Part shown: positions 4,174 through 11,533 of the stretch, in pieces
How positions within the stretch are numbered: the stretch's first letter is position 1
Layout of the letters: each line of letters opens with the position of its first letter
Origin: Thermodesulfovibrionales bacterium
GTDB taxonomy: Bacteria > Nitrospirota > Thermodesulfovibrionia > Thermodesulfovibrionales > UBA6898
Direction: 5' to 3'
NCBI GenBank assembly: GCA_044450345.1
Contig: JBIOIY010000028.1
Span: forward strand, 1 to 38,364
Length of the DNA: 38,364 nucleotides
Position numbers and translations under genes: made by a program
The notes under the pieces: model-generated
Told to the model about the DNA's origin: nothing
Database searches by the model: none
What the model saw: the letters and a program-made list of their open reading frames with translations, nothing else

Positions 4174-4281
4174 CGTTTAAAAAATGGCTTATCTATGGTA
4201 AAATAATCGAAACTTTAGGGTATTTAGGCCGCTTCCGCCGCAGTCAGGTCCGATGAAGCTGCCTTGAGGAGAAAGTGGACT

Positions 4282-6018
4282 ATGAAAATGTCAGGCGCGG
4301 AAATATTCATAGAATGTCTTAAGAAGGAAGGTGTGAAGTATCTGTTTGGCTACCCCGGCGGCGTCGTCCTGAATATATTCGACTCCCTTCACGACGAAAA
4401 GGACCTTCAGCTCATCCTGACAAGGCATGAACAGGGAGCTGTCCATGCTGCCGACGGATACGCAAGGGCGACCGGAAAGGCCGGCGTGGTGCTGGTCACC
4501 TCAGGGCCCGGCGCTACAAATACTGTTACCGGGATTGCTACGGCATCAATGGATTCTATCCCACTCGTCGTTTTTTCCGGCCAGGTGCCGACGATGCTTA
4601 TAGGCAATGATGCCTTTCAGGAGGCGGACATAGTCGGGATAACGAGGCCCTGCACTAAATACAATTACCTTGTAAAAGATGTTAATGAGCTGTCGACGAT
4701 CATCAAGGAGGCGTTCTATATCGCCACGACGGGCAGGCCGGGGCCTGTCCTGATCGACCTTCCGAAGGACGTCACGACAGCGAAGGCGGACTTTGTCTGG
4801 CCTGACTCTGTCGATATGAGGACCTATAAGCCTACCTACGAGGGCAACCGCTACATGATCAACCAGGCCGCCCACATGATAGCAAAGGCGAAGAAGCCGG
4901 TCTTCGTCGGGGGCGGGGGCGTGATCAGCTCAGGGGCGGCAAAGGAACTCAAGGAACTCGCTGAATATACCGAAATCCCGGTCACGATGACGTTGATGGG
5001 ACTCGGAGGGTTTCCCGGCAGCCACAAGCTATCGCTGGGCATGCCCGGCATGCACGGAACGTATTACGCAAACAAGGCGATACAGGAGTCCGACCTTCTC
5101 GTTGCCATCGGCATGCGTTTCGACGACAGGGTAACCGGCAAGATCAGCGCTTTTGCTCCGAACGCAAAGATAGTGCATATCGATATCGACCCCACGTCCA
5201 TCAAAAAGAATGTGCGCGTCGACGTGCCGATAGTAGGCGATGTCAAAAAAGTCCTCCAGGCGATGAACAAGGTACTGAAGGAAGAAGTGAAGGAACAGTG
5301 GCAGGAAGTGAGAAAGGCGTGGCTCAAACAGATAAGCGCCTGGAAGGCCGAAAGACCGATGTCTTACGACAAGGACACCGATATCATAAAGCCGCAGTAC
5401 GTTGTCGAGAAGATAAATGAACTTACAAAGGGAGACGCCATAATTTGTACGGAGGTGGGACAGAACCAGATGTGGACTGCACAGTTTTATAAGTTCGATA
5501 AGCCCCGTACGCTCCTTACTTCCGGCGGGCTCGGAACGATGGGCTATGGCTTCCCCGCAGCAATAGGCGCGCAGTTTGCCTTCCCGAACAAACTCGTCAT
5601 AGATATTGCCGGAGACGGGAGCATCCAGATGAACATACAGGAACTCGCAACTGCGGTGATCAATAAGCTTCCGGTCAAGGTCGCTATACTGAACAACCGG
5701 TTTCTTGGAATGGTGAGACAGTGGCAGGAACTTTTCTTCAAGGAGAGGTACGCGCATACCAGGCTCGAAGAGACGATACCTGACTTCGTCAAGATTGCCG
5801 AGGCGTATGGCGCGGTCGGGCTTAGGGCGACAAAACGTTCCGAAGTTGAGCCTGTCCTGAGAGAGGCATTCAGCATCAAGCGGCCGGTATTTATGGATTT
5901 CGTGATCGACTGGAAGGAGAAGGTATACCCGATGGTGCCCGCGGGCGCTGCGATCGACGAGATGCTTTTCCGCGAAGATGAGAAGAAGTCCGAGAAGAAA
6001 CTGAAGGCGGTCAAGTAA
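4282..6018 (+). CDS. ilvB: Acetolactate synthase large subunit
   Basis: [33 protein letters not shown] motif GDGSIQMN...LNN; ATG 4282 after GAGGAG. Confidence 0.97.
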
Positions 6019-6065
6019 AACGATGCCCCCTTGGGGGGATTAAAGAGGGGTTATAGAGGAGAGCT

Positions 6066-6554
6066 ATGAGACATACAATATCGATACTCGTCGAAAATAA
6101 ATTCGGCGTGCTTTCCAGGATTTCAGGACTGTTCAGCGGCAGGGGATACAACATCGAGAGCCTTTCCGTCGGCGAGACGATAGACCCGCAGGTGTCGGTC
6201 ATGACGATCGTGACGGTGGGGGACGACTGGATCATAGAGCAGATCACGAAACAGCTTAACAAGCTTATCGACGTGATCAAGGTGGTGGATATGACCGAAC
6301 TCGACCATGTCGAGCGTGAGATGGTCCTTATCAAGGTCGCCCCCCGGCAAGAGGACAAGGCAGAGGTCCTGAGGCTTGCCGAGATCTTCAGGGGCAGGGT
6401 GATCGACTCGAGCCAAAAGACCTATACCATCGAGATCACCGGAGAAGAAAAGAAGATAGCCGCGCTTGTGGAGCTTCTGAGGCCGATGGGGATCAAGGAA
6501 TTTGTGAGGACCGGCAAGATCGCGATCGCAAGGGAAGGCACCAGAAAGCCGTAA
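6066..6554 (+). CDS. ilvN: Acetolactate synthase small (regulatory, ACT) subunit
   Basis: [56 protein letters not shown]. Confidence 0.97.
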
Positions 6555-6619
6555 GTTTTTCGGTGGTCACCTGATACGCTCTGCTTTTTAAAGGCCGGAT
6601 TTATCCCTGCTTCCCGGTC

Positions 6620-7402
6620 CTACTTGAAAATGTCCACCCAGATCTTTGTGGCTGTCCCGATGATGATCACGGCGAGCAGCCATCTCAGATAGTGTGTCTT
6701 TGTCTTTTTGCCGACGACACTGCCCAACCTTGCAAAAGGCATCGCCCCGACAAGGAGCGCGGCGGCCATATGAAAGGGCACCTGACCGGTGGCGACCTTT
6801 CCGACGAGCCCGGCTGACGAAGAAAACAGCCCGATCGCAAGGGTGCTTCCCAGCGCCACTCTAAGGGGTATCTTCAGGACATACAGCAGGATTGGGATGA
6901 TTATGAAGGCGCCGCCCTGTCCCACCATCCCGATCAGGAAGCCGATCAACACGCCTATGACGATGGCGGTGGGCCTATGGAACGTCACCTTCTCCTCGGT
7001 CATCTCGTCTTTGCCATAACTTCGGGGGATGAGCATCATCACCGAGGCGGTAAAAGCGAGAGCCCCGAATATAAACAGCAGCGGCTTGTCCGGCACCATC
7101 TTCGAGAGAAAGGAACCGGTAAGAGAAGACATAAATAGCGAGAGGCCGAGCGTGAGCACAAGAGGTTTATTAACAAGGTTGTGCTTGTTATAAAAGAACA
7201 GTGCGACAAGTGAAGCGAAAAATCCCTGTATCATGGTGAGGCCTGTGATGCTCTTGACGCCTACGGGATCAAGGCCGAATGCCGGGGGCAGATAAAGAAG
7301 AAGCGGGAACATGAGTATGCCTCCGCCTATTCCTAGCAGGCCTGAAAAAAAACCGACGATGGCGCCTGCAATGATCAAAAGGAGATAGGGCGCTGCGTGC
7401 AC
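6620..7402 (-). CDS. TauE/SafE (TSUP) sulfite-exporter family membrane protein
   Basis: GLLGIGGG and GMVGQGGA repeat motifs, about 8 TMs, 260 aa; GTG starts 1 nt after the selD stop. Confidence 0.9.
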   Translation of the reverse strand: MHAAPYLLLIIAGAIVGFFSGLLGIGGGILMFPLLLYLPPAFGLDPVGVKSITGLTMIQGFFASLVALFFYNKHNLVNKPLVLTLGLSLFMSSLTGSFLSKMVPDKPLLFIFGALAFTASVMMLIPRSYGKDEMTEEKVTFHRPTAIVIGVLIGFLIGMVGQGGAFIIIPILLYVLKIPLRVALGSTLAIGLFSSSAGLVGKVATGQVPFHMAAALLVGAMPFARLGSVVGKKTKTHYLRWLLAVIIIGTATKIWVDIFK

Positions 7403-7403
7403 G

Positions 7404-8450
7404 CTATTTCTCCACGAAGATCTCGGTGTTGTCCCTTACCTCTCCCTCAAGCAGATCCCCGATATAGGCAGCCAGGAGGCCTTCCTTCTGCAGGGTCGCC
7501 ATCAGTTTTTCTTTTCTTTCCCGGGGGACAAAGATGAGGAGTCCTCCCGATGTCTGGGCGTCGCACAGGAGGACCTTTTCATGATCAGGGACGTCGTCCG
7601 CCCATGTGATGTAAGGCGTATACGTCTTGAGGTTACCGAGCGTGCCACCCGGCGCGATATCGATCTCCGCGAGCCTGACGGCCTCATCGAAAAAGGGCAC
7701 GAGGCTCGTACGAATGTGCGCCCTGCACTTGCTTGCAGAAAGCACCTCGTGCAGATGCCCTATAAGGCCGAACCCTGTAATGTCCGTTGCCGTATTTACG
7801 CCGACCTCAATCATTATTTCTCCGGCCCTTTTATTCAATGTCGCCATCGAAAGGGTCAGCTCTTCAATGACCGTGTTGCTGCACATCCCGGCCTTTATAC
7901 CGGTAGATACAACCCCGGTTCCGATCTTCTTCGTGAGTATCAGGGCATCGCCAGGTTTTGCCTTGGAGTTATCGAGGATCTTGTCAGGATGGATCGTACC
8001 CATGACCGCGTAGCCGAATTTCGGTTCCTTGTCCCTGATGGTATGTCCGCCGATAATTGATACTCCGGCCTCGGCCATCTTATCGATCCCTCCCTGCATG
8101 ATTCTTTGAAGCGTGGGGAAAAAGGCTGGCTGGCTCGGGAACATCGCGATATTCAGCGCGACGATAGGTTTGCCGCCCATCGCCCATACGTCCGACAGCG
8201 CATTGGCGGCCGCGATCGCACCGAACCAATAAGGGTCATCGACAATCGGTGTGAAGAAATCGGTAGTCAGTACTACGGCAATATCATCGGTAATCTTGTA
8301 CACGCCGGCGTCATCGGCGTTAGAGGAGTCGACAAGTACATTCTTATCTGTGAGAGCTGGCAGCTGCCCCAGCACCTGGGACAGGTCCGAAGGACTGAAT
8401 TTTGCCGCTCAACCCGCGCAGCTGGAAAGTTCCGTAAGCTTGATAGACAT
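7404..8450 (-). CDS. selD: Selenide, water dikinase (selenophosphate synthetase), selenocysteine-containing (U14, TGA at 8409-8411); 348 aa
   Basis: SD GAGGAGG then ATG 8450; reads MSIKLTELSSCAG-TGA-AAKFSPSDLSQV in frame into the 323-aa ORF; DDAGVY, TTDFFTP, ANALSDVWAMGG, GGHT, TDITGFGL, DAQTSGGLL. Confidence 0.95.
8364..8384 (-). promoter_or_regulatory. Candidate bacterial SECIS hairpin of selD
   Basis: mRNA CUGUCCCAG-GUG-CUGGGGCAG, 9-bp stem with one U-G pair, G-first loop 33 nt after the UGA. Confidence 0.65.
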
Positions 8451-8486
8451 CGTTACCACCTCCTCTTTTACAATGTGATATCTGTG

Positions 8487-8828
8487 CTACCGTGTCCTCG
8501 TTCCTGGATAAGTGCCCTTCTTCGTTACCGGGCAGCAGGCCGGCGCAGGCAGCGTCTCTTTATAGTCTTTCTGAAGCAGATCGATAAGATCCGGGATCAT
8601 CGGGTCTTTAAGGAAATAGCACTTGAGTCTCCCGTCGACAAAAAAATCGATCAGCCCGTATCTCCTCATGAGGGAGAGATGTTGGGAGACATTCGGCTGG
8701 CGTATTTCGAGGAACTCCTCAAAATCGCTTACGCACTTCACCCCTTTGCGCAGTTCTTTGAGTATCTTTATCCTGACGGGGTGGGCGATGACTTTCAGCA
8801 CTTCTATTTTCCTGTCTATCTCGGTCAC
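8487..8828 (-). CDS. ArsR/SmtB-family transcriptional repressor with a C-terminal PAPACCP tail
   Basis: AHPVRIKIL, KCVSD, QPNVSQHLSLMR helix-turn-helix; GTG start after SD AAGGAG. Confidence 0.92.
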   Translation of the reverse strand: MTEIDRKIEVLKVIAHPVRIKILKELRKGVKCVSDFEEFLEIRQPNVSQHLSLMRRYGLIDFFVDGRLKCYFLKDPMIPDLIDLLQKDYKETLPAPACCPVTKKGTYPGTRTR

Positions 8829-8849
8829 AGTAACTCCTTATCGCTTTTA

Positions 8850-8879
8850 ATAATAATTAATGCAGAAGGATGTTATCAA
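8850..8879 (-). promoter_or_regulatory. Putative sigma70 promoter for arsR-selD-tauE
   Basis: TTGATA-18 nt-TATTAT on the minus strand, 21 nt before the GTG. Confidence 0.45.
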
Positions 8880-9050
8880 TAAAAAAGTTATAACTGCCTC
8901 TGTCCCTCTCTGAGGATTCCGTGAGGCGAGCAAGAATTTTTAGATGGCGCCCGTCGGTTTTTGGAGGCCCCTTTGTTACAAAAGTCAGTATTGTGACATG
9001 AATTTGCAGCTACCAGATTCCCGGTTCTCCTATTTTTCGCATGCCTTTTT

Positions 9051-10241
9051 TCAATACGGCCAGGCGCTAATGCCGTGTCTGATCGTGTACATGAAGTATT
9101 TCTCGAACCCTAGCTTCAGCCATTTGTAGACGATGCCTTCTTTGAGCTCTGATTCCTGTCTCGGTGGAAGAACCGGGCTGGCCTTCATGTACATCGCCTT
9201 CTTGCCCGTATCCATGAGGCAGAAGACCTCGATCGGAATTTCAGCCGGAGGAGTGGCTCCCGTGATATCAGACGCGATTGTCTTTGCAGCAGTCTTTGCC
9301 ATTCTCACAGTCATATAACCGGTTTTCGGGACTCCTGTGGGCACCGGGGTGGCTTCGGGAGGCGCTATCGCGACTGCGACACCGGCGGAAAAAATGTTCT
9401 TGTGTTTTGTATGCCTGTACCTGCCGTCAACCGGGATGAATCCCCTTGGATTGCCGAGATGTGCCACTGCAGGCACTCCTTTCATAGCAGGGGCGAACAT
9501 CGAAAGCTTAAATGGAAGTTTCGTGCCGTCCTTGAGTTTCGCCTCTCCGGCAGTGAACTCTTCTATGGCGGTGTTTGCGATTATCTTAATGTCGCGTTTT
9601 GCGAACTCATCCTCCATCATCCTTTTTGAGTTCCTTAGCCCGCCGATCCCGAAATGGCCGGCATACGGCTCCGATGTGACAAACGTGATCGGTACCTTGT
9701 GCCTTATCTTCCGCTTGCGAAGTTCGGCGTCTACCTCGAAGACATACTCATAGGGAGGTCCCGAGCAACTCACACCCTGCACCGACCCCACAACGATGCT
9801 GCCCGGCGCTTCAAGGAACCTGCTCCATGCGCTGTTCGCCCTCTCCGCCTGATCGAGGGTGAAGATGCACTCTGTATGTCCTTTTTCGGGGCCGAGGCCC
9901 GGGACTTCCTCAAAGGCGAGGTACGGCCCGGTCGCTATTACCAGAAAGTCGTAAGGAATTTCCTTCGTTCCGGTAATAACCTTCGAACCGTCGGCATCCA
10001 CACCCGTAGCCTTTTCATGAACAAAGGCGATGCCTTTTCTTTCCAGTAACGGCTTCAAAGACAGGGTTATATCGCTCGCCTTCCTCCATCCCATCGCCAG
10101 CCATGGCAAGGAAGGAATGAATACGAATTTGTCGTCGTCGCTTACAACGGTGATCTCAGCCTTTTTCCCGAGAAGTCTTTTAAGCTCAAAGGCAGCAGTC
10201 AACCCGCCGAATGAGCCGCCCAATATAACTATCCTCGCCAT
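9051..10241 (-). CDS. sqr: Sulfide:quinone oxidoreductase-like flavoprotein (SqrA/SqrD-like)
   Basis: GGSFGG FAD fold, FVFIPSLPW, ATGP, ECIFT, SCSGPPYEY, GVPKTGYM, FCLMDTG, C-terminal amphipathic KLGFEKYF. Confidence 0.88.
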   Translation of the reverse strand: MARIVILGGSFGGLTAAFELKRLLGKKAEITVVSDDDKFVFIPSLPWLAMGWRKASDITLSLKPLLERKGIAFVHEKATGVDADGSKVITGTKEIPYDFLVIATGPYLAFEEVPGLGPEKGHTECIFTLDQAERANSAWSRFLEAPGSIVVGSVQGVSCSGPPYEYVFEVDAELRKRKIRHKVPITFVTSEPYAGHFGIGGLRNSKRMMEDEFAKRDIKIIANTAIEEFTAGEAKLKDGTKLPFKLSMFAPAMKGVPAVAHLGNPRGFIPVDGRYRHTKHKNIFSAGVAVAIAPPEATPVPTGVPKTGYMTVRMAKTAAKTIASDITGATPPAEIPIEVFCLMDTGKKAMYMKASPVLPPRQESELKEGIVYKWLKLGFEKYFMYTIRHGISAWPY

Positions 10242-10263
10242 GTCATCCTCCCATTAAATTATT

Positions 10264-10290
10264 GTAGGGGCAATTCATGAATTGCACTAT
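10264..10290. repeat. Degenerate GTAG-family REP-like palindrome between dsrH and sqr
   Basis: GTAGGGGCAATTCATGAATTGCACTAT, with a perfect core GCAATTCATGAATTGC. Confidence 0.6.
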
Positions 10291-10291
10291 T

Positions 10292-10579
10292 CTAAAACAT
10301 CCCTATTACCTTGTCGGTTTCGGTCATTAAATCAACCAGACCGCCGTAATCGATATCCTTTATGTTTTTATTTTCATCGGCGCTCTTCAGTCCTCTTAAT
10401 CTCCTGTCGTCTTCGAGGACATAGGCTGTCCTGACATACCCCAGGTCTTCGAGCGCTTGTTCCTTGAGAAAATAGACCCCGTTCTGTAAGAGAACGATAT
10501 CGGCGGACATATCCCGTGCAATCTTAACGCCCCTTTTGCCTGCCGGTGTGTCAGGCGCGCTTTTTACAATAACTATCAT
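10292..10579 (-). CDS. dsrH: DsrH/TusB-family sulfur-relay subunit
   Basis: KSAP, IVLLQNGVY, YVLEDDRRLRGL, IDYGGLVDL; 95 aa; third gene of an E-F-H triplet. Confidence 0.85.
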   Translation of the reverse strand: MIVIVKSAPDTPAGKRGVKIARDMSADIVLLQNGVYFLKEQALEDLGYVRTAYVLEDDRRLRGLKSADENKNIKDIDYGGLVDLMTETDKVIGMF

Positions 10580-10602
10580 AGGAACCTCCCGTTTGTCGTT
10601 CG

Positions 10603-10956
10603 TTAAAAAATCATTGTGCTGTCGGCCTGTTTAAGGAGTGCTGCGATAGCTGACTCATTTACTATTTTCACACCTTCAACAATGTCCTCTTTTTTTAGTT
10701 CGTGCTGGATCAGGGACAGATTATCCGCAAAAACCTCTGCACCCATTTCGGCGCAATCCTTTAACGCAGCTTCGAGATTGGTAAAACCAGTGTTCGTGTC
10801 GTCCTGCCCTTTTCTTGCGAGCTGGACGCCGCCGTCAACGAGGATAAGTGATACTGCGATATCTCCTGACATGGCACCTAGGGCATGCCTTACCGCTTCG
10901 GCTGCATTAATGTCGCCGTATGGCGGCTTTCTGAGTATCATTGCAATCTTTCCCAT
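10603..10956 (-). CDS. dsrF: DsrF/TusC-family sulfur-relay subunit
   Basis: ILRKPPYG, EAVRHALG, LVDGGV...KGQ; SD AGGAGG overlaps the TAG of the extended dsrE. Confidence 0.8.
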   Translation of the reverse strand: MGKIAMILRKPPYGDINAAEAVRHALGAMSGDIAVSLILVDGGVQLARKGQDDTNTGFTNLEAALKDCAEMGAEVFADNLSLIQHELKKEDIVEGVKIVNESAIAALLKQADSTMIF

Positions 10957-10965
10957 ATTTTCCTC

Positions 10966-11322
10966 CTATGCTCCTATATTGAGCCAGATATCGCTTTCGC
11001 CCATGGTCTTGAATAACCCTTTGAGCGAGCCGACCTCTACGCCGTCGATATAATCTTCTTGCGCCGCACGGCGAAAGTTGAGACACCCTCCTCAGAGATA
11101 AACCTTCAGACCCTTCTGAATGAGTCCTGAGAATTCCACCTCTGCGTTCGTAATCCCCTTTGCCTTCTGTTTTTTCAAAAAACAATAGATTCCGTCGGCA
11201 GAAGCGATCAGGTTGACGGTGTGCTTCCTGTTTAAGGCCGCGTCTGCGATCTTGATCGTAGAGAGGGTGTTTTCATAAGAGTAGGGTGACGTCGATAAAA
11301 AAAGCGTGATGTTTTTTCCCAT
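10966..11322 (-). CDS. dsrE: DsrE/TusD-family sulfurtransferase, selenocysteine-containing (U77-x-x-C80, TGA at 11092-11094); 118 aa
   Basis: ATG 11322 after AGGAGGAG; STSPYS, SADGIY; reading through the TGA gives LKVYL-U-GGCLNFRRAAQEDYIDGVEVGSLKGLFKTMGESDIWLNIGA, completing the fold and ending 9 nt before dsrF. Confidence 0.9.
11058..11077 (-). promoter_or_regulatory. Candidate bacterial SECIS hairpin of dsrE
   Basis: mRNA CUU-U-CGCC-GUGC-GGCG-C-AAG; G-first loop 22 nt after the UGA. Confidence 0.65.
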
Positions 11323-11392
11323 AATCTCCTCCTGCATACTTATAACGTTACTGTTTTGGAGTCATTTGAACAAATAACAATGCCTGTATTCA

Positions 11393-11473
11393 TCAATTCC
11401 TCCTAACGCCCGGATATTTGACTTTCTTTGTTACCGGGCAACAGGCGGGTGCAGGCAATTCGTCTTACAGCAC
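11393..11473 (-). pseudogene. Collapsed remnant of a second ArsR gene (only the start and the C-terminal tail remain)
   Basis: SD GGAGG, GTG CTG TAA, then in frame DELPAPACCPVTKKVKYPGVRRN-stop; matches the tail ETLPAPACCPVTKKGTYPGTRTR of the ArsR at 8487-8828. Confidence 0.8.
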
Positions 11474-11497
11474 TTTTTTTTCCTCCGATAAATGCAT

Positions 11498-11533
11498 ATA
11501 TAAAGATATACCGATATTTGAATGTATTGTCAA
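11498..11533 (-). promoter_or_regulatory. Putative sigma70 promoter of the dsrEFH-sqr unit, overlapped by an ArsR-type AT-rich imperfect palindrome
   Basis: TTGACA (11528-11533), 17 nt, TATATC; overlapped by ATATAAAGATATACCGATAT (11498-11517). Confidence 0.55.

Follow-up and report, generated by a model that had tools for sequence, protein, structure and literature searches.

A Candidate ArsR Regulon Linking a DsrE-Like Selenoprotein, Sulfide:Quinone Reductase, and Selenophosphate Synthetase in Thermodesulfovibrionia

Described systems closest to the locus

The sulfide-stress operons cst (Staphylococcus aureus) and bigR (Xylella and Agrobacterium) bring together a thiol-based repressor, a TauE-type permease, and either a sulfide:quinone reductase (SQR) or a sulfurtransferase. 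Here we analyze a cluster of seven genes, dsrE, dsrF, dsrH, sqr, arsR, selD, and tauE in order of transcription, on contig JBIOIY010000028.1 of a Thermodesulfovibrionales bacterium (UBA6898; assembly GCA_044450345.1). The window is the whole 38,364-nt stretch that was analyzed, and positions refer to it. The cluster resembles the cst and bigR operons in that it also holds a repressor, SQR, and a TauE-type permease. It differs from them in the cysteine positions of its regulator and in including the selenophosphate synthetase SelD, and a Pfam scan found no persulfide dioxygenase or rhodanese in it. We propose, with a probability of about 0.5, that one ArsR regulon joins a cassette converting sulfide to sulfane sulfur with a cassette for selenium assimilation.

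The first three genes resemble those of known sulfur carriers. DsrEFH complexes are described as sulfur transferases in PMC13293266. Like Allochromatium vinosum DsrEFH (2hy5) and Escherichia coli TusBCD (2d1p), the window trio is a run of small adjacent genes encoding DsrE, DsrE, and DsrH domains, and its predicted reactive residue probably lies near the carrier-Cys position. The AlphaFold2 model of the window DsrE (predicted local distance difference test score, 87.7) matches YchN, DsrE, DsrF, and TusD with template modeling (TM) scores of 0.83 to 0.87. The trio differs from these systems in having selenocysteine (Sec) in place of Cys, with a resolving Cys three residues on, and in not adjoining dsr or tus genes. 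A second form, DsrEFH type II, was reported in sulfate reducers by Plum-Jensen et al. in 2026 (PMC13293266), where it is described as syntenic with tusA and yeeE/yedE, carrying Cys67, and invisible to Pfam. In that paper, organisms whose dsrAB is of the reductive type, Nitrospirota among them, have a DsrEFH-like carrier, and the proposed chain runs from SQR through a transporter and the carrier to DsrC; in both respects the window locus is similar. The window trio is set apart by the type II description itself, as it is recognizable by Pfam, has Sec in place of the carrier Cys, and lies beside arsR and sqr, and we found neither tusA nor yeeE/yedE in the window cluster or in the arrays mapped in relatives. 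A term search of the accessible text of that paper returned no mention of selenocysteine, SelD, ArsR, or TauE. Because gene callers split the Sec-type dsrE, the type II census may have missed the Sec-type trio.

A "DsrE-like, UxxC" selenoprotein family (PF02635) was predicted by Zhang and Gladyshev and is tabulated in PMC1794560 (for Desulfovibrio vulgaris), PMC13188914, and PMC9312934. It has been catalogued since 2005-2006, in the entries of these three sources without partners or function. The window protein shares its DsrE fold, Sec in UxxC, and selenocysteine insertion sequence (SECIS) hairpin 3' of the UGA. What differs is the setting, since the window gene opens a dsrE-dsrF-dsrH trio tied to SQR and ArsR, and in some genomes to selD-tauE.

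Comparative genomics has also named partners of SelD, namely, COG1252 flavoprotein-SelD fusions, NifS-SelD fusions, YedE/YedF, and LysR_Se (PMC2432076, PMC5322559). The fused flavoproteins belong to the SQR/NDH-2 superfamily and are predicted in PMC2432076 to make the SelD substrate. As in the partnerships given in these sources, the window has a flavoprotein of that superfamily, a DsrE-like CxxC-type carrier, a membrane transporter, and a dedicated regulator beside selD. Every role is filled differently: a true SQR rather than a fused domain, DsrEFH rather than YedF, a TSUP protein rather than YedE, and ArsR rather than LysR. The terms TauE and ArsR have no occurrences in the accessible text of PMC5322559. 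Literature searches returned no paper linking TSUP proteins with selenophosphate and, judged from titles and abstracts, none on selenium transport by TauE, and the literature searched held no description of the whole combination of Sec-DsrEFH, SQR, ArsR, SelD, and TauE. The feature is real and conserved and has been described only in part. New here are a regulon map over 95 neighborhoods, the operator, the history of arsR deletion, and selD-tauE as a standing partner.

Selenocysteine codons and protein identities

A first-pass annotation of the sequence had listed seven co-oriented genes with two in-frame UGA codons at catalytic sites. We recovered all seven on the minus strand (Table 1), named from Pfam and NCBIfam profile searches of the window proteins, and both UGA codons aligned to catalytic positions (UGGC in DsrE and CAGU in SelD). 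Among 66 DsrE homologues extracted from the window and 100 fetched loci, TGA occupies the same column in 64, within a UGGC or UTGC motif, and Cys is found there in the remaining 2. The 69 nt around the dsrE UGA align without gaps across these 64 sequences. A 7-bp hairpin starts 15 nt 3' of the UGA; 92% of its cells are paired, versus 47 to 62% when the partner is slid, and five of the seven pairs show compensatory changes on both sides. With its PF02635 domain, in-frame UGA in UxxC, and SECIS-like hairpin, the protein has the features of the DsrE-like selenoproteins. In SelD, Sec takes the column of Cys17 in the E. coli enzyme (3u0o) and of the Cys engineered into the Aquifex enzyme (2yye), and the N-terminal loop also has Lys where the E. 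coli enzyme has Lys20. A stable hairpin lies 3' of the selD UGA and was equalled in folding by 5 of 200 shuffles.

The first-pass annotation had recommended a check of the genome, and this turned up selA (609 bits), selB (382 bits), and tRNA-Sec, together with dsrA (541 bits), dsrB, and dsrC, the DsrC-family genes lying outside the window. The best match to SelU scored 22 bits, below the cutoff, in a genome that is 91% complete. Because selA, selB, and tRNA-Sec accompany the UGA alignments and hairpins, we predict with high confidence that both UGA codons are decoded as Sec. The presence of dsrAB and dsrC and the lack of a detectable SelU indicate an organism that lives in the presence of sulfide and puts selenium into Sec.

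The nearest solved relative of the window DsrE by sequence is YchN (E, 1e-8), with the DsrE Sec aligned to the first Cys of the YchN CxxC; A. vinosum DsrE is matched only weakly (E, 1e-3). The Sec residue falls at profile position 77, and the span of the profile match to 2hy5_A covers positions 4 to 90 on residues 2 to 91 of a chain whose carrier Cys is Cys78. DsrF and DsrH fell below the equivalog cutoffs for TusC (TIGR03010, 41.8 bits versus 94.15) and TusB (TIGR03011, 43.8 bits versus 49.2), and the NCBIfam search gave no TusD/DsrE equivalog match for DsrE. Three other DsrE-family genes are present in the window genome (G000:C29:588-878, C29:26132-26485, and C1:72056-72364; G numbers denote genomes, G000 being that of the window).

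The flavoprotein matched the SQR structures of Acidithiobacillus ferrooxidans and Aquifex with 310 bits (E, 1e-91) over residues 1 to 393, and its Pyr_redox_2 domain and full-length similarity agree with the flavin-binding fold. Cys125, Cys159, and Cys341 are conserved in 98 to 100% of 51 orthologues. Cys159 and Cys341, invariant in these orthologues, align to Cys residues of 3t2y and so occupy the place of the catalytic pair, which we take to be Cys160/Cys356 in A. ferrooxidans. Cys125 is conserved in 98% and lies two residues off the aligned Cys of the solved SQRs. The window protein ends about 25 to 40 residues short of the solved chains, in the region of the membrane-binding helices. We considered a C-terminal Sec in SQR and rejected it, since the 51 orthologues close with any of TGA, TAA, and TAG and share no conserved extension; the sqr TGA is an ordinary stop. 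By these alignments, the flavoprotein is a true type I SQR homologue.

SelD scored 364 bits against TIGR00476 (cutoff, 125), contains the AIRS domains PF00586 and PF02769, and was the sole SelD found in the window genome (one match at an E value of ≤1e-40). The TauE protein scored 145 bits against PF01925 (cutoff, 32.6) over residues 9 to 253, that is, over its full length, and its start codon lies one base past the selD stop. The window tauE has no in-frame TGA. In one relative (L138, genome G358; L numbers denote fetched loci), the TauE orthologue after selD, at about 6170-6950(+), has an in-frame TGA in the first helix; that column is Ser, Ala, Ile, or Val in 24 other orthologues, and one has Cys at the next column. 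The start of selD was corrected to the ATG at 8450, and dsrE probably starts at 11322, which would give a product matching the orthologue length.

Linkage and regulation in relatives

To place the cluster among its kin, we sampled 401 genomes of the phylum Nitrospirota and found DsrE matches in 166 and SelD in 197. The best 80 loci of the genome-collection scan were by title metagenome-assembled genomes of Nitrospirota/Thermodesulfovibrionia, except one labeled Betaproteobacteria, the best being a "Candidatus Sulfobium" (86%). We mapped 61 DsrE loci, the window and 60 matches of about 16 kb each, chosen by rank and contig size rather than at random. As the kin are not independent, the neighborhood counts that follow should be read as a description of the sample and not as a statistical test. 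Both dsrF and dsrH are kept in 57 of the 61 loci, an ArsR orthologue (59 to 77% identity) lies upstream in 49, and an SQR orthologue lies downstream in 46, while selD is present in 8. These counts indicate that arsR-dsrE(U)-dsrF-dsrH-sqr is a conserved operon of which selD is an occasional member.

Phylum SelD proteins fall into identity classes, and neighborhood data were available for 35 genomes whose SelD is 65 to 80% identical to that of the window. A TauE orthologue (64 to 83% identity) directly follows selD in 26 of these, the same ArsR orthologue is found in the array in 24, and SQR is found in 14. Sec-dsrEFH is in the array in 13, or in 15 when two locus pairs (L133 plus L040 and L134 plus L052), each joined via MMPL transporter and outer-membrane protein genes on one contig, are counted. 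At least one of ArsR, dsrEFH, SQR, and the MMPL-outer-membrane protein pair accompanies selD in 28 of the 35; the other 7 (L106, L109, L111, L112, L113, L114, and L118) have none of these, and one of them is a 3.5-kb contig. Among 13 loci with a SelD 43 to 57% identical, none has these neighbors on the selD strand; L127 carries a TauE-like gene on the opposite strand, and in L046 a 50% identical SelD ends a long array.

The units are linked in at least five orders, the window's own included. The others are arsR-selD-dsrEFH-sqr (L053, L056, L139), arsR-selD-tauE-dsrEFH-sqr (L072, L138), arsR-dsrEFH-sqr-selD-tauE (L083, L098, L136), and arsR-dsrEFH-sqr-...-MMPL-OMP-selD-tauE, with OMP the outer-membrane protein and the sqr end seen (L104, L116, L133, L134, L087). 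We also found arsR-selD-tauE alone (L105, L107, L110, L115, L117) and, without dsrEFH, arsR-(tauE2)-selD-tauE-sqr or arsR-tauE2-sqr-selD-tauE (L100, L101, L103). The first-pass annotation had been ready to give up its idea if the two units proved not to occur together elsewhere; they are together in the 15 genomes counted above, in several orders and with an orthologous ArsR and operator.

The arrays of relatives often extend past sqr. They add a second ArsR paralogue, a 140-aa DsrE_2-like protein (PF13686; in 22 of the 61 DsrE loci), a 770-aa MMPL transporter (PF03176; in 28), and a DUF1302-like outer-membrane protein (in 23), and selD-tauE often comes after these genes. Examples from L040-L099 and L133-L139 are L053:3728-6040(-), L052:5394-5816(-), L052:5838-6158(-), and L104:2428-3765(+). 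The window genome has no orthologue of the array MMPL or outer-membrane protein. The first-pass annotation had called the module self-contained, which is too strong given this usual extension and the distance of most dsrE(U)FH-sqr units from selD.

Four cysteines of the regulator are invariant in 66 ArsR orthologues: C32, at the classical helix-alpha3 position, C70, and C98-C99 in a near-invariant C-terminal tail. The nearest solved proteins belong to the ArsR family and include SqrR and BigR (E, 1e-9 to 1e-6), and a Protein Atlas look-up returned generic ArsR clusters only. We rejected orthology to BigR or SqrR, since the BigR model gave 42 bits against a cutoff of 155 and the helix-2 sensing Cys of SqrR aligns to a non-Cys residue. 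One alternative is a stress regulon for metalloids or thiophilic metals, in which As(III), Sb(III), Te(IV), Cd, or a similar element would be the signal for the four-Cys ArsR and the other genes would deal with the resulting thiol or chalcogen stress. The vicinal C-terminal Cys pair and the helix-alpha3 Cys do resemble those of ArsR/CmtR types that sense metal(loid)s, the score against the general metalloregulator model was 68 bits, above its cutoff (CmtR, 34 bits), and the relatives' arrays include an MMPL exporter and an outer-membrane protein. Against this, neither the window cluster nor the mapped arrays contain ars, czc, or mer genes, and the cargo genes are all chalcogen related. We consider such a regulon very unlikely.

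The annotation had also proposed an ArsR remnant upstream of dsrE, and this proved real: the stretch translates to the conserved C-terminal tail with its CC motif, and its local alignment to the intact arsR scored 53, versus 18 ± 2.1 for 200 shuffles. Just upstream of the remnant, a TTGACA box precedes an inverted repeat that is rich in A and T. The arsR genes of relatives are likewise preceded by TTGACA and then by a 12-4-12 palindrome that overlaps the -10 region. A matrix built from 26 of 65 arsR upstream regions of relatives found 70 sites of at least 22 bits in 2.76 million positions, of which 47 fall in the 400 nt before an arsR orthologue, a count that is in part circular because of how the matrix was built. 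Most of the remaining sites are the same palindromes on the opposite strand. Further, separate sites stand immediately upstream of dsrE in L056 (in the selD-dsrE interval) and in L076, and upstream of a tauE paralogue in L072. The window site, 11497-11528, is the best in the window and in the 3.19-Mb genome (25.3 bits; the next, at 23.6, is AT rich), and the matrix scan found no other convincing regulon site in that genome. The intact window arsR is preceded by a sigma-70-like hexamer pair and has no such operator.

The same history is seen in a second genome. In G175, the arsR before dsrE is fragmented (L058, G175:C9), and an intact arsR heads selD-tauE on a separate contig (L117, G175:C42). 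A broken arsR at dsrE and an intact arsR at selD-tauE suggest that one repressor serves both units. In the window, the intergenic gaps from dsrE to tauE are 9, 23, 50, 222, 36, and 1 nt, and terminator prediction gave none on the minus strand in the sqr-arsR gap. The seven genes would then form a single operon driven from 11533, with the repressor gene shifted from first to fifth place. The 222-nt gap with its sigma-70-like promoter before arsR, and the separation of the units in many genomes, could instead mean that two unrelated operons are neighbors by chance. We hold this to be highly improbable, because the linkage recurs in at least five orders, a regulator orthologue and operator are common to both units, and two genomes show parallel decay of one of their two arsR copies.

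The flanks of the window cluster are ilvBN (4264-6554, plus strand) and an acylphosphatase/bioB pair from 11625 (plus strand). Several genes recur inside relatives' arrays. In 14 of the 61 DsrE loci, arsR is separated from dsrE or tauE2 by a conserved open reading frame of about 71 aa with a Cys-Pro motif and no Pfam match [e.g., L054:7849-8064(+)], which was not found in the window genome. A gene for a 383-aa multihaem cytochrome c lies between a tauE paralogue and dsrE in L048, L070, L078, and L085 [e.g., L070:8385-9536(-)]. A further DsrE-family protein of 107 to 110 aa with a CGTC motif is encoded inside arrays L086, L087, L090, L095, L099, and L138 [e.g., L138:9490-9822(+)].

Table 1. Features of the cluster, in order of transcription (window positions)
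Feature	Position	Strand	Remarks
Putative promoter (-35 TTGACA) and overlapping ArsR-type operator	11494..11533	-	Probable ancestral arsR promoter, now heading dsrE
arsR remnant	11392..11479	-	Last ~27 codons, with in-frame stop; codons ~1-85 deleted
dsrE-like gene	10966..11322	-	118 aa; predicted Sec in UGGC motif; PF02635, E 5e-14
UGA, predicted Sec codon of DsrE	11092..11094	-	
dsrE SECIS-like hairpin	11059..11076	-	7-bp stem, 4-nt loop; one U.C mismatch in window genome
dsrF-like gene	10603..10956	-	117 aa; PF02635, E 9e-17
dsrH-like gene	10292..10579	-	95 aa, no Cys; PF04077, E 4e-10
Type I SQR homologue	9051..10241	-	396 aa
Sigma-70-like promoter before intact arsR	8850-8879	-	TTGATA-18-TATTAT
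ArsR/SmtB-family repressor	8487..8828	-	Cys C32, C70, C98-C99; HTH_5
selD	7404..8450	-	Predicted Sec at residue 14, CAGU motif; TIGR00476
UGA, predicted Sec codon of SelD	8409..8411	-	
selD SECIS-like hairpin	8364..8384	-	z = -2.31
TauE/TSUP permease	6620..7402	-	260 aa; PF01925, E 3e-42

Sulfur or selenium as cargo

We propose that the seven genes are one ArsR-autoregulated operon, a compact form of a modular regulon that would be widespread in Thermodesulfovibrionia. In the first cassette, SQR would oxidize sulfide at the membrane to zero-valent sulfur, and Sec-DsrE would take up this sulfur as a Se-S adduct and pass it to cytoplasmic acceptors such as DsrC. In the second cassette, the sole selenophosphate synthetase of the cell would be coupled in translation to a TSUP/TauE protein that may move a selenium (or sulfur) anion. 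The Cys-rich ArsR would bind the 12-4-12 palindrome over the -10 region and release it when a reactive chalcogen rises, and sulfide handling and selenium activation would then be switched on jointly. The sequences themselves establish the gene identities, both Sec codons, the common regulator and operator, and a linkage of the two cassettes that recurs but is facultative; the effector of ArsR, the substrates of the enzymes, and the direction of transport in this scheme are ones that we infer. Sulfur is the more conservative cargo because the SQR is close to solved SQRs, with its three Cys kept, and the genome encodes dsrAB and dsrC. That DsrEFH complexes are sulfur transferases (PMC13293266) and that 53 of the 61 DsrE loci lack selD within about 8 kb also speak for sulfur. 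Of the first-pass interpretation, the anatomy, the two Sec codons, and the remnant hold up; its selenium-centered chemistry is a possibility to which we give less weight.

Several observations weigh against this proposal. Five loci have arsR-selD-tauE alone, and four genomes with this arrangement have no Sec-DsrE match, so co-induction of selD to supply Sec for DsrE is not the whole reason for the linkage. TauE is tied to selD rather than to sqr or dsrEFH, a poor fit for a sulfite exporter. The lack of the SqrR Cys position and the BigR score far under its cutoff leave a sulfane-sulfur effector without homology support, and the partial circularity of the operator count belongs here as well.

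Some of the same observations bear on another explanation, which we regard as a tentative possibility, that the cluster is a selenium-capture line for sulfidic water. Here, the TSUP protein would move selenium and SQR would oxidize selenide to bound Se(0). Sec-DsrEFH would carry this as a Se-Se adduct for which sulfur cannot compete and deliver it to the CxxU (CAGU) loop of SelD, and the four-Cys ArsR would respond to selenium, so that trace selenium is picked from excess sulfide. Consistently with this, selD-tauE is linked to sqr even in three loci without dsrEFH, and arsR-selD-tauE operons occur without Sec-DsrE. The motifs are complementary, with UxxC in DsrE and CxxU in all 34 listed SelD proteins of the 65 to 80% identity class; in the window and L046-L139, the 50 to 57% class has UxC, and the 43 to 50% class has CxU or no Cys. 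Human SQOR is reported to oxidize hydrogen selenide (bioRxiv 10.1101/2023.04.13.535674). The superfamily flavoproteins fused to SelD are predicted substrate makers (PMC2432076), and the window SQR scored 63 bits against the corresponding "Nterm_to_SelD" model, below the cutoff. NifS-like enzymes are Se(0) donors, and the best 120 of 2,767 long SelD homologues were all fusions with them, with no flavoprotein-SelD fusion among those 120. On the other side, the window SQR is an unexceptional enzyme closely related to those that act on sulfide, and most dsrE(U)FH-sqr units lie far from selD, alongside SelD proteins of other clades that have no such neighbors in any of the 13 loci examined.

The locus bears on an open question, namely, how a cell finds trace selenium and separates it from a vast excess of sulfur before SelD. 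According to a 2026 review (PMC13188914), a specific high-affinity system for selenium transport has yet to be identified in prokaryotes. If selenium capture is what the cluster does, prokaryotes would have in it a transporter dedicated to selenium, a sensor for it, and a means of discriminating it from sulfur upstream of SelD. The locus yields candidates for the transporter, the sensor, and the carrier, and a lead on selenium acquisition in sulfide-rich habitats. The Sec-type DsrEFH with SQR is common in the phylum sample and is shortened by gene callers, and it bears on inferences as to which sulfate reducers can also oxidize sulfur. The locus is a testable link between the handling of sulfide and that of selenium.

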